From an uncultured Acidobacteriota bacterium (lineage in GTDB: Bacteria > Acidobacteriota > Thermoanaerobaculia > Multivoradales > Multivoraceae), in contig CAWKPF010000002.1 of NCBI GenBank assembly GCA_963851415.1, positions 2,374,526 through 2,438,525 on the forward strand: a stretch of DNA of 64,000 nucleotides. Reading direction: 5' to 3'. This document shows, in pieces, positions 24,058 through 45,364 of the stretch. The notes under the pieces were generated by a model. It searched no databases. It saw only the letters and a list, made by a program, of their open reading frames with translations, and had not been told where the DNA came from. The translations under genes were made by a program, and so were the position numbers. The stretch's first letter is position 1; each line of letters starts with the position of its first letter.

Positions 24058-24157
24058 GGAAGCGCTCGGGGGCTGGTGCCTCCTGCGGTCTTCAAAACCG
24101 TTTTGTCGTATGGGATGCCATGCGATGGGTGGGTTCGATTCCCATGCGCTTCCGCCA
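24058..24157 (+). tRNA. selC: tRNA-Sec (selenocysteine tRNA, anticodon UCA)
   Basis: 100 nt. 8-bp acceptor stem GGAAGCGC/GCGCTTCC, discriminator G, encoded CCA. 6-bp D-stem GGGGGC/GCCTCC with 4-nt loop TGGT. Anticodon loop cTTCAaa (U33 then TCA). Long 9-bp variable arm GTCGTATGG/CCATGCGAT. T-arm GTGGG-TTCGATT-CCCAT. Same GGAAG…CTTCCGCCA ends as E. coli selC. Confidence 0.8.
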
Positions 24158-40064: not shown

Positions 40065-41882
40065 ATGTCCACCTGCAAGAAGCTCGTCATGTGGGCGACG
40101 GTCGCATCGCTCGCTCTCTCCCCACTCGCGGTTCTCGCCGCCGAGACCGAAAGCGAGACCTCCCCCTCGCCGAACCTGAGCCCGGAGGCCTGGCGAGCGG
40201 ACTACGACCGTTTCATGGAGGCACAGCTGGTCGAGCGCAGCAAGGCCGGCGTGGCCTCGGGGCGCAACGGCGCCGTGACCGTGGCCTATAACGGCCTCGC
40301 CGCGCGCGCCGGACTCGCGGCGCTCGAGCAGGGCGGCAACGCCATGGATGCGCTCCTCACCGCTGCGGTGGCTCAAGTCGCGCTCACCGCCGGCGCACCG
40401 ATCAGCTACTTCGGGATCCTGTCCCTCGTCTACTACGACGCAGAGACGAAGTCCGTGCACACCATGAACGCCGAGTGGAACACCGTGATCGGAGAGACGA
40501 GCCCGATGACGATCCCGGGCGGCATCGACATGGCGAGTGAGGAAGGGATCCTGGGAGCGAATCCGAGCGGCCGCACGGCTCTCGTGGGCGGATTCATGAA
40601 GGGGGTTGGCGCGGCGCACGAGCGCTTCGGCAAGCTCCCCTTCGTACAGATCTTCGCCCCAGCGATCTACGTCGCCGAGGAGGGAATGCCAATCTCGAAG
40701 AAGATGGCCGGCTACTGGGAGATGCGGACCCCAGACCTGGCGCGCCTGCCCGAGACCAGGGCCACCCTGCTCAAACCCGACGGTTCCCCCTACACCGCCG
40801 GCGACACATTCCGGCAACCCGCTCTGGCCAAGACTCTTCGCGCCGTGGCCGAAGAGGGGGTCGACTACATGTACACCGGCCCGTGGGCGAGGAAACTCGT
40901 CGACGCGGTGCAGGCGGACGGCGGCAAGATGACGCTCGAGGACCTCGCCTCTTACGAGGTAGCCTGGGACGACCCGTTGGTCGCCGACCTCGGTGACGGC
41001 TACCGCGTCTACACGAACCCCTCACCCAACAACGGCGGCGTCGCCCTGATCGAAGCACAGCGACTGGCGCGGGCCTCGGGCATGCTCAAGGACGGACACT
41101 GGACCGAGTCGGGGGAGGGTCTGCGCAAAGCCCTCGACATCACCCAGCTCTACGTCCTCGATTTCCTCCCCAACGCCACTCTCGCGCAGTTGTACCCAGA
41201 TGTGGAGTTCACCCCAGAAGCGCGCGTCACGGAGGAGAACGCCGCGAAGCTGTGGCAGCACGTCGAATCGGGAAAACGCCTCATGCAATGGAACATCACC
41301 CGGGACAGCCCCCCCAAACACTCCGACGACGTGGTCGCCATCGACCAGTGGGGCAACATCGCCGCGATCACGCAGAGCATCAATTGTGTGATCTGGGGCA
41401 AGACTGGGATCGTGGTCGACGGCATCACGATCGGCGACCCGGCCTCCTTCCAGCAGATGCAGATCCAACGCGCCGGCCCCGGTCAGCGTCTCGAGTCCCC
41501 CACCGAGACCGGCATCCTGTTCAGGGGCAACGACCCCGTGCTCGGGTTCGCCTCGATGGGATCGGGGCTCCACCAGCGGACCTTCCAGGGGCTGCTCAAC
41601 TTCATGCACTACGGCATGACCGTCGATGAGGCGATCGACACCGCCGACTTCTACATGCCGCTCTCCGATCCCGCGACCCTCAAGCTCACATTGCGCGTGC
41701 CGAAGGGTCGCTTCCCGAAGGAAGTGCTCGACGGCACGGGTCTCGCCTACGAGGAGCTCGATCCCACGAGCGCTCGCTTCGGGGGAGAGGGCATCTGGAT
41801 CGCGATCAGTCGAGACCCGGTCACGGGAGAGCTGCGCGCCGCCTCGCACAACCGTAACAACAGCGCTGCCGTCGCCTTCTGA
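40065..41882 (+). CDS. ggt: gamma-glutamyltransferase family protein
   Basis: Signal peptide; GGT-like large and small subunit regions (…GGNAMDALLTAAVAQVALTAGAPISYFGI… and …HSDDVVAIDQWGNIAAITQSIN…GDP…). 605 aa. Confidence 0.75.
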   Translation: MSTCKKLVMWATVASLALSPLAVLAAETESETSPSPNLSPEAWRADYDRFMEAQLVERSKAGVASGRNGAVTVAYNGLAARAGLAALEQGGNAMDALLTAAVAQVALTAGAPISYFGILSLVYYDAETKSVHTMNAEWNTVIGETSPMTIPGGIDMASEEGILGANPSGRTALVGGFMKGVGAAHERFGKLPFVQIFAPAIYVAEEGMPISKKMAGYWEMRTPDLARLPETRATLLKPDGSPYTAGDTFRQPALAKTLRAVAEEGVDYMYTGPWARKLVDAVQADGGKMTLEDLASYEVAWDDPLVADLGDGYRVYTNPSPNNGGVALIEAQRLARASGMLKDGHWTESGEGLRKALDITQLYVLDFLPNATLAQLYPDVEFTPEARVTEENAAKLWQHVESGKRLMQWNITRDSPPKHSDDVVAIDQWGNIAAITQSINCVIWGKTGIVVDGITIGDPASFQQMQIQRAGPGQRLESPTETGILFRGNDPVLGFASMGSGLHQRTFQGLLNFMHYGMTVDEAIDTADFYMPLSDPATLKLTLRVPKGRFPKEVLDGTGLAYEELDPTSARFGGEGIWIAISRDPVTGELRAASHNRNNSAAVAF

Positions 41883-41947
41883 CGGCTCGAGATCCACGCT
41901 CAAGACCCGTGTCGTGGAGCTGCCAGAGATTCAGCGCGTCCCCCCCG

Positions 41948-41969
41948 ACATCGACGTGGCGGCGTCGAT
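41948..41969. terminator. hairpin between convergent genes (possible bidirectional terminator)
   Basis: catcgacg-tggcgg-cgtcgatg, 8-bp perfect stem with 6-nt loop, 66 nt after the ggt stop. No U-tract, so weak. Confidence 0.3.
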
Positions 41970-42011
41970 GGAACAGGGAGCCTCGCCATCAGCAGGTGCG
42001 GGTTCACTCGT

Positions 42012-43802
42012 TCAGAAGTCGACCGTGCTCTGGCAGCAGCGGTAACCGCCGGTCGGCAGAATCGGATAGGAGATCGAGAACGGCAGGCCCGGTGGGATGG
42101 AGAGCAGGGGGCTCAGGTCGATGGAGATCGGAGGCCACGGGGTGTCGAAGACCTGCCGGGTCGGGCTATTGGCCGAGGCGATGACGCCGCCTCCCTGAAG
42201 CCAGTCTCCCTGCTGGCAGCCGAGGCTCGAGGGGGGCGCACCATTCGCCAACTGGAAGATCTCGGGGGCCGAGCAGACGTGCCCTCCGAGCCCGGCACAC
42301 ACCGTTTCCGCGACGGCGTAGTCGAAGGTCTGATCGATTCCTGCGAAGACGGGGGGCATCGTCTCGATCGTGTGCTCCACATACTCTTCTCTCAGCTCGG
42401 GCAGATTGCACATGATCGAGAGCGAGTCGGGATTCTCGACGATCACTTCCGCCAGGTCGACCACGTTGGCGAAGGGGGCGAAGTCGAGGTTGCTCCAGCT
42501 GTTCGGGAGGTTGAGATTCCCGATGTTGACCGGGTTGGTCGGCCAGCAGTCGCCCGGACAGGCCTCGCCGTCGATGGTGTTGAACATCGGGTTGACGCCA
42601 TCTTCGACGAAGTTGTCGAAGCTGTTGAACAGGCTGTCGATCGCGCCGAAGGCCGAGCCCAGCGTGTTCTCCATCAGTACCTCGACGTCCGTGAGGGCCT
42701 TCTTGATCGGTGCCGTGTTGACGTCGATCGGTCCGCGCTCGAAGTACGCGGGGGAGCTCTTCGGCATGTTGGCCCACATGTCGCAGAGGGCCTGGACCTG
42801 ATCGGCGACCATCTGCTGGAAGTAGACCGTCTTCACGGTCTGGATCTTGCGTCCCGTGGCGCAGATTCTCTGCGTCTTGCCGTTCTGCTCGGGGAAGACC
42901 CGCTCGACGACGTCGAAGGGGGCCTCGCACTGCTCGAGCCCTCCGACCTCGGTGGCGAGATCGGCGAGGTCCGAAGACAGGGCCGCGAGATCGACCTGTG
43001 AAGCGGCACCGAGCTTGGTGCGTGCCGCCGCCGCGTTGACGGCACCGGTGCCGCCCTTGCCCACGCCCAGAGTCGTGCTCAGCGTCGCGGCGGAGCCGGC
43101 GATGTCGATGCCAGCCGTGCCGCTTGCCAGCTTTCCGGGGTCGAGGTCGGTGAGCAGGGAACCGTCGCCGGCGTATCCCTGGGCACTGATCAGCCCCTCG
43201 ACGCTGAAGGTAGCGCCCGGCGCTCCTCGCACGCCCGATCTGGCACTCTTGCGGACGGTCCCGCGGTCGGGCGCCGTCTGGGAACGGGCCGTCCGGGTCC
43301 CTTCGCGTGGTTCTGCGTCTTTCGCTTCGAGGTATCGCTGGACGACTGCGACAGCCGTCTCCAGATCGGGCTCGCTCGTCGCAGAGGCGACCCGAAAGAG
43401 GCTGGGCTCGGACCAGTCGGAAGAATCCAGCGAGCCCCCGGCCTCGGGGCGCAGAGCACGAATCGACCAGGCGTAGTCGGCCTCGTCGAGACAGCGCTCG
43501 AGCGACGGCGTCCACGATCGGGCCTGACCGGGAAGCCGCTGCGCGAGCACGCGCTGCGCCCTGCCGTCCTCTTCGTCGCTGAAGCGGTAGACCACCAGCT
43601 CGTAGCTGTCGGCCTGCTCGACCGCACCCCAGCTGAAGGTCGGGCAGGCCGCGGCCGTAGCTGCTCCGCTGGCCCGCCCCGGAGAGACCGCCAGGGGGAC
43701 CTCGGAAGCCGCCACCAGGTTGCCGAAGGTGAACGACACGAAGACACAGAAGAGCAGGGTGTTGCGGAGCACGGTGGGCGTCCTTTCGTGGGGGGAGCTC
43801 AT
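42012..43802 (-). CDS. secreted Cys-rich protein with FN3-like N-terminal domain and phage-tail-fibre-like GKGGTGAxNAAAARxxLG motif
   Basis: Start MSSPHERTP… (signal-like LLFCVFVSFTFGNLVAASE) overlaps the upstream stop by ATGA. Contains LGVGKGGTGAVNAAAARTKLGAAS, which resembles the conserved motif of phage tail-fibre / tail-spike proteins. C-terminal third has many Cys. Confidence 0.5.
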   Translation of the reverse strand: MSSPHERTPTVLRNTLLFCVFVSFTFGNLVAASEVPLAVSPGRASGAATAAACPTFSWGAVEQADSYELVVYRFSDEEDGRAQRVLAQRLPGQARSWTPSLERCLDEADYAWSIRALRPEAGGSLDSSDWSEPSLFRVASATSEPDLETAVAVVQRYLEAKDAEPREGTRTARSQTAPDRGTVRKSARSGVRGAPGATFSVEGLISAQGYAGDGSLLTDLDPGKLASGTAGIDIAGSAATLSTTLGVGKGGTGAVNAAAARTKLGAASQVDLAALSSDLADLATEVGGLEQCEAPFDVVERVFPEQNGKTQRICATGRKIQTVKTVYFQQMVADQVQALCDMWANMPKSSPAYFERGPIDVNTAPIKKALTDVEVLMENTLGSAFGAIDSLFNSFDNFVEDGVNPMFNTIDGEACPGDCWPTNPVNIGNLNLPNSWSNLDFAPFANVVDLAEVIVENPDSLSIMCNLPELREEYVEHTIETMPPVFAGIDQTFDYAVAETVCAGLGGHVCSAPEIFQLANGAPPSSLGCQQGDWLQGGGVIASANSPTRQVFDTPWPPISIDLSPLLSIPPGLPFSISYPILPTGGYRCCQSTVDF

Positions 43803-44278
43803 TTCAGGGGGCCGGTGGGGCCGCGGCCGACGACGCTCGACCATGCGGACGTCGTTCCCGCATCGAAACCATCGGCGAAGATCTCGCTGCACACGAGTGT
43901 CGGGTCTTTCTCGAGATGCACGTTCGTCGCGCTCACCTGCGAGGCTCCGAGGACAGCCATCGCCTCCCCGACGCAGGCGGTCTTCATGTCAAAGTTCCTC
44001 AGCACCACCGGACCGCCTTCCGATTCGATCCGGAGCGAGCCGGCGATGATGGTCGTGTCCTCCGCAGGACCGGCCAGAGTGAGACCTCGACCGACGGTGA
44101 TCGCTTCGGTGTAGGTACCGGCCGAGAGCTGGACCGTGGTGCACGATCCGTCGAGCACGGCACTCTGAATGGTCGCGTGGGAGCCGGGCACACTGCAGAT
44201 CTCTGCAGCGTGTGCAGCTGGGGCCGTCGCAGCCAGAGCGACCATCGATAGCCGAGCAAGACGTGAGTTTCTGAGCAT
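43799..44278 (-). CDS. small secreted protein with right-handed beta-helix-like N-terminal repeat
   Basis: Signal MLRNSRLARLSMVALAATAPAAHAAE. …ATIQSAVLDGSCTTVQLSAGTYTEAITVGRGLTLAG resembles pectate-lyase/NosD-type beta-helix caps. Translationally coupled to the downstream gene. Confidence 0.4.
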   Translation of the reverse strand: MLRNSRLARLSMVALAATAPAAHAAEICSVPGSHATIQSAVLDGSCTTVQLSAGTYTEAITVGRGLTLAGPAEDTTIIAGSLRIESEGGPVVLRNFDMKTACVGEAMAVLGASQVSATNVHLEKDPTLVCSEIFADGFDAGTTSAWSSVVGRGPTGPLK

Positions 44279-44416
44279 CAGGCCTCCTGACAAAGCGGTA
44301 GAGAAGCTCGCTGGTCCAGAAAGCGTCGTTGTTCGGCGAAAAGGATCACCCGGCGCTATCTCGAGAAGACCAAGCGCTCGAGACGACCAACGTCATGGGC
44401 AACAAGGAGGCGCGAA

Positions 44417-44790
44417 GTGGAGCCCCGAATCGAGGTTCTGGTGGCCAAGAAGCTGGTCGGCATGCGAGCCGAGATGTCCCTCGCCGTGGACCGACCCCTC
44501 AGCTCCGGCGGGCGTTCATGCCTGTGGGCGTGGTCGCCGATGTGCGCCACGGCGCGCTCTCGGAGGACCCCGGATCCCCGATGTACTACCGCACGCGCAG
44601 TTTCGACATTGGGCCAGCGGCCGTGCGATGTCGACTCTGGAGCTGGTGGTGCGCTCCCCACTCGAGCCGAATCGCTACTCAGTCGTCCGACAGTCGGCTC
44701 ACCCGCGATCGCCGTTTGAACCTGTGGCGAAACACCGCAGCTCCCCTGGCGGTTTCTCCCCGCCAATCCGTATAGGAGGGCGAAGAGGAG
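44417..44790 (+). pseudogene. possible GyrI-like (effector-binding domain) gene broken by at least 2 frameshifts
   Basis: MEPRIEVLVAKKLVGMRAEMSL (GyrI-like start) in one frame, …FMPVGVVADVRHGALSEDPGSPMYYRTRSFDIGP… in a second, …ELVVRSPLEPNRYSVVRQSAHPRSPF… in a third. No frame is intact. Confidence 0.3.
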
Positions 44791-44797
44791 GTGTCTC

Positions 44798-45364
44798 ATG
44801 CAGAGGAAAACCACGACATTCGCCGCAATCACGCTCCTGGGCGCCCTCTGGGCCGCCACCGGCCAGGCCGAAGATCCGTCAGATCACCCGATGATCGGGT
44901 CTCCGGCGCCCCCCTTCGAGCTCGAGTCCGTCAACGGCCACCCGCCGCTCTCGCTCGGAGAGCTGCGCGGCGGCTACGTCGTGGTGCACTTCGCAGCCAG
45001 CTGGTGACCGTTCTGTAATGCGGAGGCTCCGCATTTAGAAGCAGTGTCCCAGAAGTACCGGAACCGGAATGTCCGGGTCCTGATCATCGACGTGATGGAG
45101 GACTCGAAGGTGGCCTCCGACTGGGCGAAGCACCACGGTTTCAGCTTCCCGGTACTGCACGATGCCGAGGGCGAGGTCAGCACCCGTTACGCCCCCGAGG
45201 AAGTGCTCCCCGATCTGCCTCGGGACCAGGTCCCCATCGCCTCGAATCTGATCATCGATTCAGAAGGCAAGATCCAGTTCTACACGCTCCTCGACAGCCG
45301 GAACTTCGACGCCAAGCTGATTGCGCTACAGGCTCGACTGGACGAGCTGCTGGCACAGGACTGA
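44798..45364 (+). CDS. selenocysteine-containing thioredoxin-fold thiol:disulfide oxidoreductase (TlpA/ResA/redoxin family), Sec encoded by in-frame TGA at 45005-45007
   Basis: ORFs 44798-45007 and 45044-45364 are in the same frame. Read-through gives signal peptide MQRKTTTFAAITLLGALWAATGQA…VVVHFAASW-U-PFCNAEAPHLEAV…, i.e. the redoxin motif WCxxCRxExPxL with U in place of the first Cys. selC is present at 24058. Confidence 0.75.
45018..45034 (+). promoter_or_regulatory. bacterial SECIS-like hairpin 10 nt downstream of the UGA-Sec codon
   Basis: atgcgg-aggct-ccgcat (6-bp stem, extendable to 9 bp with flanking a/t) begins 11 nt after the TGA. Apical loop contains G, as in bacterial SECIS elements. 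Confidence 0.5.

Follow-up and report, generated by a model that had tools for sequence, protein, structure and literature searches.

The window analysed here is a 64,000-nucleotide stretch of contig CAWKPF010000002.1 from an uncultured Acidobacteriota bacterium, and its subject is a pair of adjoining genes on the minus strand, called the small and the large gene here. Both products start with a signal peptide, and the stop codon of the small gene overlaps the start codon of the large one in the tetranucleotide ATGA at 43799-43802 (Table 1). A first-pass annotation, made from the letters alone, had described this overlapping secreted pair and pointed to the sequence LGVGKGGTGAVNAAAARTKLGAAS in a large protein of 596 aa, and an independent gene call on an identical metagenome contig agrees, giving products of 159 and 596 aa. 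The small product had been put at 164 aa, a length that is reached only from a TTG at 44293, while the ATG at 44278 gives 159 aa. The G+C content at third codon positions (GC3) was 0.86 for the large gene and 0.87 for the neighbouring gamma-glutamyltranspeptidase gene; the codon usage of the large gene is native.

From its N-terminus, the large protein is composed of a signal peptide, an immunoglobulin-like (Ig-like) module, a conserved amphipathic helix followed by a low-complexity basic linker, a short stalk, and a Cys-rich head. It contains 14 Cys residues, one in the signal peptide, two in the N-module (Cys53 and Cys104), and 11 between aa 292 and 590; the cysteines that had been counted as about 12 in the C-terminal third are 11 in the C-terminal half. 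Neither protein of the pair reached a Pfam or NCBIfam threshold, and neither had a sequence match in the PDB. A Pfam check of both had been recommended, and it gave no significant match. In a search of 5.8 billion clusters, only two full-length homologues of the large protein were found (P0002 and P0003, 49-52% identity, both metagenomic), and 13 further matches shared the first ~210 residues only. This shared part comprises the signal peptide, a Cys-pair domain with the pattern CPTFSWG...SWTPSL.xCL...YAWSxRA...WS.P.LF, the helix, the low-complexity linker, and often the sequence 'SFTGDGSxLTxL'.

A profile of the N-module matched at least 206 clusters at E ≤ 1e-5, every named one of which is called 'hypothetical protein'. 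A scan of the GTDB species genomes revealed 21 loci, nearly all in Acidobacteriota (Thermoanaerobaculia, Holophagae, and Vicinamibacteria) and one in a Gemmatimonadota metagenome-assembled genome (MAG), with up to 3 paralogues per MAG. A GTDB contig scan with the alignment of the three full-length proteins gave no relative, and the source genome itself was likewise missed by it. The N-terminal domain had previously been called FN3-like, and this found support through the relatives and not through the window protein. The Pfam family Ig_Rha78A_N (PF25788) matched 15 of the 32 aligned relatives at E ≤ 1e-3 (best E 1.5e-7), with three reaching the cut-off of 27.4 bits, while the window protein itself had no match at E ≤ 1. 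The window protein has the invariant residues of the N-module family, and an FN3-like assignment is supported by transitivity, because its relatives match Ig_Rha78A_N. Among the 32 N-module proteins, the C-termini belonged to Lcl_C/DUF1566 (7 proteins), Peptidase_S74 (3), DUF1554 (2), MopE repeats (1), and a pectinesterase-type beta-helix (1), and many were unassigned. Because the C-termini differ from member to member, the N-module proteins are, as judged from their sequences, a family with a constant base and a variable tip.

Other members of this family take further forms. Many, only 150-256 aa long, stand alone and have no tip. Of these, three (P0041, P0051, and P0060) lie on one 10.7-kb contig, which suggests tandem arrays, and another (P0087) comes from a 5.2-Mb contig of Holophagales. 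Two paralogues (L132 4908-7019 and L150 383-2545) have a tip made of the repeat 'LKVAHCNDxACTS....D', in about six or more copies of ~45 aa with two Cys each; this tip has no Pfam match.

Between base and head lies the stalk, which carries the motif LGVGKGGTGAVNAAAARTKLGAAS. The degenerate DNA pattern of the motif had a single match in the window and 0 matches in 100 shuffles. The first-pass annotation had taken the motif for one characteristic of the C-terminal regions of phage tail fibres, and the tail-fibre part of this claim stood. Six PHROG families matched the large protein, five of them annotated 'tail fiber protein', with phrog_11393 as the best match (E 6.4e-5, aa 234-278). Among viral sequences, a scan with the back-translated motif recovered at least 120 IMG/VR loci. 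Among the IMG/VR matches listed, all 131 of 131 motif occurrences were in frame, with the consensus (V/I/L)AxGGTGAxxAAxARxNLG, and the 4 motif-bearing open reading frames (ORFs) that we scanned all matched PHROG tail-fibre families. The C-terminal specificity fell away, as the motif was found anywhere along the viral ORFs listed and was often repeated in one ORF.

The resemblance to phage fibres is confined to this short segment. PHROG coverage was restricted to aa 211-328 rather than extending over most of the protein, and a tblastn search with the 93-aa stalk gave nothing at E ≤ 0.01 in 50,697 phage genomes; the likeness is therefore one at the level of the motif and not of close kinship. 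The sole PDB sequence match of the stalk was a weak one (E 0.15), to chain D of 7Z47 (7z47_D), deposited as 'Putative tail fiber', in which the motif occurs twice; the entry belongs to the structural study of phage SU10 (PMC9509320). At its C-terminal end, the stalk forms a neck with a 3-4-3-4 hydrophobic spacing (DLAALSSDLADLATEV here and DLVALAGDVAALAGDV in P0002), and this heptad spacing is kept in both P0002 and P0003.

The head was covered by no Pfam, NCBIfam, or PHROG family. Its 11 Cys (aa 292, 314, 340, 415, 419, 465, 502, 510, 529, 589, and 590) are invariant across the three full-length homologues. A hidden Markov model of aa 285-596 found only 12 matches among 1.84 billion representative proteins. 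In these 12 carriers the head module is always C-terminal and is preceded by very different stalks. In P0022, the stalk is a long Ala-rich coiled coil that continues into collagen GXY repeats (with a Pfam Collagen match) before the head, in P0024, P0026, and P0029 it is built of 'GGTVTGDL'-type fibre repeats, and in P0028 and P0032 of short coils. Where the context was readable (P0022 and P0024), the neighbourhood is an ordinary chromosomal one; P0022 (L008 8001-10838) is a protein of 945 aa encoded beside aconitase B and MiaE.

An AlphaFold2 model of the head, built on a 12-sequence alignment, had a mean predicted local distance difference test score (pLDDT) of 70, with confident residues 1-60 and 170-312 of the module and a poor helical middle. 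In this predicted structure, the last ~108 residues adopt a C-type-lectin-like fold, whose best structural match was Bd2740, the tip of a mosaic adhesive trimer (MAT) fibre of Bdellovibrio bacteriovorus. The conserved signature Y..AE..C...GGHVCS..E...L fits the first helix of a C-type-lectin-like domain (CTLD). The Ca2+ and sugar-binding motifs (EPN/QPD and WND) were absent from aa 489-596, and Pfam Lectin_C gave no match at E ≤ 1. The possibility that the tip is a divergent DUF1566/Lcl_C domain (PF07603) was tried and rejected, with no Pfam match and an hhalign probability of 0.4% against the DUF1566 tips of family members. Foldseek found no structural relatives of the head in BFVD, and pattern scans of IMG/VR found neither the head nor the base module. 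The earlier suggestion of an adhesin or receptor-binding module fits the lectin-like tip and its match to Bd2740.

The small protein was predicted to be secreted, and its signal peptide can indeed be recognised by eye, with cleavage at AHA-AE. Its beginning had been likened to a pectate-lyase or NosD-like beta-helix, and this was upheld on a small scale, since the predicted structure is a right-handed parallel beta-helix of only about 100 residues. The best fold matches were carbohydrate esterases, lyases, and depolymerases, and the fold occurs in tailspikes too. With ~100 folded residues, the helix falls short of a full-length catalytic one and is too short for the enzymes it resembles. By sequence, there was no Pfam match, and NCBIfam NosD scored 10.6 bits (E 0.15), with its cut-off at 300. 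For aa 132-159 the pLDDT was <50; the motif IFxxGF[DE]xG....W in this tail, which we take to resemble the first strand of LamG/ConA-like domains, is kept in four members of the small-protein family.

This family had only 5 members in the search of 5.8 billion clusters. A small gene lies directly upstream of both full-length homologues of the large protein, and the four invariant Cys (aa 28, 46, 102, and 130) are all retained there. One of the five, the ~75%-identical orthologue P0021, lies on a low-coverage contig with an apparent frameshift and in a further genomic context, which represents a fourth locus. An intermolecular disulphide was considered, since the head contains an odd number of Cys and Cys529 is specific to the partner-associated clade, but was set aside; the number of Cys in the small protein is even (4). 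A weak local similarity was seen between the small protein and the beta-helix tip of the paralogue L148 (E 0.002, in a single comparison); kinship of the two was considered and dismissed, the similarity being limited to a generic 44-residue start motif.

Table 1. Genes, protein regions, and non-coding elements of the gene pair, with positions in the window.
Feature	Position	Strand	Remarks
Small gene	43799..44278	(-)	159 aa from ATG at 44278, TGA stop included
Large gene	42012..43802	(-)	596 aa, TGA stop included
ATGA stop/start overlap	43799..43802	(-)	Small TGA and large ATG; possible translational coupling site
Conserved non-coding block CGACGCTTTCTGGACC	44313..44328	(-)	34 nt upstream of the ATG of the small gene; aligned with upstream regions of L001 and L003
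Small protein, Sec-type signal peptide, aa 1-24 (MLRNSRLARLSMVALAATAPAAHA-AE)	44207..44278	(-)	Read by eye; cleavage AHA-AE
Small protein, mini right-handed beta-helix, aa 25-125	43904..44206	(-)	N-terminal cap motif ATIQSAV..GTYTE..TL.GP
Small protein, C-terminal tail, aa 126-159	43802..43903	(-)	Low-confidence model from aa 132; IFxxGF[DE]xG....W at aa 133-146
Large protein, Sec-type signal peptide, aa 1-32 (...FTFGNLVAA-SE)	43707..43802	(-)	Read by eye
Large protein, Ig-like N-module, aa 36-140	43383..43697	(-)	Invariant Cys53/Cys104 pair; CPTFSWG and YAWS.RA motifs; from alignments
Large protein, conserved amphipathic helix, aa 144-162 (EPDLETAVAVVQRYLEAKD), then low-complexity basic linker, aa 163-195	43218..43373	(-)	Helix predicted from sequence pattern
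Large protein, tail-fibre-like stalk, aa 196-290 (95 aa)	42933..43217	(-)	'GDGSxLTxLDP', GGTGAxxAAxARxxLG, heptad-like neck DLAALSSDLADLATEV
Large protein, shaft motif LGVGKGGTGAVNAAAARTKLGAAS, aa 245-268	42999..43070	(-)	GGTGAxxAAxARxxLG core at aa 250-265
Large protein, Cys-rich head, aa 291-596 (306 aa, 11 Cys)	42015..42932	(-)	Beta-hairpin cap, helical region, CTLD
Large protein, C-type-lectin-like domain, ~aa 489-596 (~108 residues)	42015..42338	(-)	Signature Y..AE..C...GGHVCS..E...L ... PTG.YRCC

The gene pair is kept in three loci with different flanking genes, and this conserved synteny within one small clade argues for a functional operon. The two genes are separated by gaps of 30 and 54 nt in the two full-length homologue loci, and the ATGA overlap is not kept there. 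Other N-module proteins and other carriers of the head lacked the small partner in the loci that were looked up; the neighbouring genes read in L009 (upstream) and L008 (downstream) gave translations unlike it. A divergent gene for an extracytoplasmic function (ECF) sigma factor (PF07638) borders the pair in both homologue loci (L001 5590-6216 and L003 202-771). The gene downstream of the pair encodes a TPR-containing Ser/Thr kinase in L001 (9225-12128), and in L003 (3794-5038) it runs off the contig and is unannotated. Near the pair in the window, the ORFs tested over ~15 kb included neither a sigma factor gene nor a kinase gene.

Upstream of the small gene, a short non-coding block is conserved in all three loci (CGACGCTTTCTGGACC in the window, CGACGCTATCTGATCC at L001 6319-6334, and TGACGCTATCTGATCC at about L003 870-890), and a longer 45-nt version is common to L001 and L003. 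The block pattern, which was derived partly from the window itself, has a single occurrence there. The block contains TCTGA, presumably similar to the -10 element of RpoE/AlgU-type ECF promoters, and from its conservation and position it may be a promoter or an operator. Scans of 41700-44900 for sigma-70 promoters and intrinsic terminators found none.

The wider neighbourhood of the pair is chromosomal. Within ~15 kb on each side are genes for an RND efflux pump, an FG-GAP/ASPIC protein, a PMT_2 glycosyltransferase, MgtC/DUF4010, and a gamma-glutamyltranspeptidase, as well as a redoxin, a TPR protein, a GDSL lipase, and acyl-CoA enzymes. No phage gene was found over this distance on either side, in agreement with the first-pass annotation, which had seen no phage or tailocin genes nearby.

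Among these neighbours, the locus at 44798-45364 (+), divergent from the pair, is probably a selenoprotein gene that ORF finders split into pieces of 69 and 106 aa, the second of which matches AhpC-TSA/Redoxin. Read-through of the in-frame TGA at 45005-45007 would give a TlpA/AhpC-like redoxin of 188 aa that carries a signal peptide and has W-U-P-F-C as its active site. About 10 nt after this TGA, a hairpin (AATGCGGAG-G-CTCCGCATT) lies at 45017-45035, and the 46-nt stretch around it (45005-45050) folds at -15.5 kcal/mol (z -2.8). The window also contains a tRNA-Sec gene at 24058-24153 (+) (Rfam RF01852, 71.4 bits), consistent with selenoprotein decoding in this genome.

On balance, we lean toward reading the locus as a chromosomal two-gene operon for a Sec-exported, modular, fibre-like adhesin of the MAT/Lcl type, probably trimeric, together with a secreted accessory protein. 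The large protein would be exported by Sec, with the Ig-like N-module as the cell-proximal base, followed by the flexible linker and the short phage-tail-fibre-type stalk. The stalk would trimerise through the heptad neck in which it ends and present the Cys-rich head, whose CTLD would bind a ligand, with a glycan or a different surface polymer as the most likely candidate. The mini beta-helix, co-transcribed in this reading, could act outside the cytoplasm, either as an accessory or adaptor subunit in fixed stoichiometry or by helping this particular fibre to fold. The gene structure, the order of domains, the identity of the motif, the folds (from models), the distribution of the families, and the absence of a phage context are shown by the analysis, while the trimer, its display on the surface, its ligand, and what the small protein does are inferred. 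Trimerisation-type features, which the first-pass annotation had named as a test of its proposal, are present: the heptad neck, the fusion of the head to a collagen region in P0022, and a best structural match that is a trimeric tip (PMC10769870) are all consistent with a trimer.

Several points weigh against this interpretation. At only ~95 aa, the stalk is short, so that 'fibre' may overstate its length, and the large protein reaches no Pfam threshold. The small partner is missing beside other N-module proteins and other carriers of the head, and its ATGA overlap with the large gene is not kept, so that the role of the partner is weakly constrained. The trimer is an inference, and neither an anchoring mechanism nor an outer-membrane secretion system for the large protein was identified.

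Four other explanations were weighed. The pair could be a secreted glycan-processing or matrix-binding system, in which the small beta-helix would bind polysaccharide or be lyase-like and the large protein would be a soluble lectin targeting exopolysaccharide or a plant or microbial glycan. The carbohydrate esterases, lyases, and depolymerases among the best folds of the small protein agree with this, as do the lectin-like tip and the pectinesterase-type beta-helix at the tip of the N-module paralogue L148, to which the small protein is weakly similar (E 0.002). We nevertheless regard it as unlikely, as the folded part of the small protein is about one third of a catalytic beta-helix and matches no enzyme family by sequence, and as stalk, neck, and the relatives with a collagen fusion speak for a fibre. 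A signalling module of ECF sigma factor and Ser/Thr kinase, with the pair as extracytoplasmic sensor or as regulated output of envelope signalling, would account for the sigma factor genes that flank both homologue loci, the TPR Ser/Thr kinase gene in L001, and the TCTGA of the conserved upstream block. Such genes were not found among the ORFs tested within ~15 kb of the window pair, however, and ECF sigma regulation would also be compatible with an adhesin, which makes this explanation improbable.

Polymorphic toxins share the architecture seen in this family, with a constant N-module, C-termini that vary, and several paralogues in one genome, and the large protein might accordingly be a toxin or a lectin-like bacteriocin, with the N-module for export or targeting, the C-terminus for killing or receptor binding, and the small gene for immunity or as a helper. 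The recognisable tips of the family (Lcl_C, the S74 chaperone, MopE repeats, and the beta-helix) bind or assemble, however, and none is a toxin domain, while the partner lies upstream, is secreted, unlike an immunity protein, and is missing from most family members; we hold this to be very improbable. Least probable of the four is a prophage or tailocin remnant, in which a gene for a tail fibre or receptor-binding protein would have decayed into the large gene, with the small gene as its assembly chaperone, both surviving the loss of all other parts of the element. What speaks for it are the PHROG tail-fibre matches at aa 211-328, a GGTGA motif of the kind usual in viral tail-fibre ORFs, a small-protein fold that tailspikes share, and a Terminase_4 gene ~1.5 kb from the N-module gene on a relative's contig (L005). 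Both proteins, however, have Sec signal peptides, unlike phage virion fibres or cytoplasmic Tfa-type chaperones; the surroundings are free of phage genes for ~15 kb on each side, and the GC3 is that of the neighbours. Searches of IMG/VR and BFVD gave no relatives of the N-module or the tip, the pair occurs intact at ~50% identity in other chromosomal contexts, and hundreds of N-module family members are found in Acidobacteriota genomes. The proposal of the first-pass annotation, a domesticated phage fibre, is not supported beyond the shared shaft motif, with only ~45-120 stalk residues phage-like, no relatives of tip or base in the IMG/VR pattern scans or in Foldseek against BFVD, and native GC3.

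The modular adhesin remains our preferred reading, and a broader version of it can be put forward tentatively. The N-module family could be an Acidobacteriota-wide counterpart of the MAT fibres, a set of mix-and-match surface fibres recognising cells or polymers, within which the CTLD subfamily would be a two-component adhesin that needs the co-translated secreted mini beta-helix for assembly or anchoring. We know of no secreted mini-beta-helix subunit among phage fibres. Acidobacteriota are abundant in soils and sediments and are poorly characterised, and to our knowledge almost nothing is known about their attachment to surfaces, polymers, or other cells. For MAT and Lcl fibres, no secreted mini-beta-helix subunit was found in PMC10769870 and PMC11162425.

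Three families without a Pfam, NCBIfam, or PHROG name are delineated by this analysis, namely the Ig-like base (at least 206 clusters), the very rare Cys-rich lectin-like head, and the mini-beta-helix partner. Should the adhesin reading prove true, the principle of a chimeric trimeric fibre whose tips can be exchanged would hold for a further phylum, and studies of structure and glycan binding would gain defined domains to work with. No new biological principle is involved; the main value lies in the three unnamed families and in the tip-swapping adhesin repertoire that they suggest for Acidobacteriota.

Compared with known systems, the small protein differs from other pectin-lyase-fold proteins (pectinesterases, PL6 alginate lyases, tailspikes, and NosD) in size, with ~100 folded residues against at least 300 in the enzymes; it stays below the sequence thresholds of these families and ends in the low-confidence IFxxGF[DE]xG tail. 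In the large protein, the sequence of neck and lectin-like domain recalls the collectins and tetranectin, in which a coiled-coil neck carries a C-type lectin domain, but the head lacks the EPN/QPD and WND motifs and a Lectin_C match, and in this bacterial protein the neck is separated from the lectin-like domain by ~200 extra residues of hairpin and helices. With phage tail fibres (for example, 7Z47 chain D; PMC9509320), it shares the motif, its flanking 'S..L.T.L' context, and matches to PHROG tail-fibre profiles. This likeness spans ~45-120 residues only, and unlike those fibres the window protein has a Sec signal peptide (read by eye, and present in all homologues), no virion-attachment domain, and no phage neighbours.

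The closest parallels are two bacterial adhesins. Lcl of Legionella pneumophila is a collagen-like 'lollipop' adhesin with a trimeric stalk and a lectin-like head that binds glycans (PDB 8Q4E; PMC11162425). Its C-terminal domain has no disulphides, whereas the tip of the window protein is Cys-rich and is not DUF1566 by sequence; the collagen region of Lcl is absent from the window protein, and the N-terminal anchor of Lcl is an amphipathic helix where the base here is Ig-like. The MAT fibres of Bdellovibrio combine a constant N-domain with swapped tips, among them S74 and a Ca-independent C-type-lectin tip (Bd2740, PDB 8OKS; PMC10769870). The window protein has no sequence match to any MAT fragment in the PDB, where only C-terminal fragments are represented. 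It differs further in its Ig-like base with a disulphide, in a much larger head with 11 Cys, in its conserved secreted beta-helix partner gene, and in its hosts, which are Acidobacteriota MAGs and not Bdellovibrio. The likeness, a constant N-module whose tips are swapped among paralogues here too, is one of analogous design.

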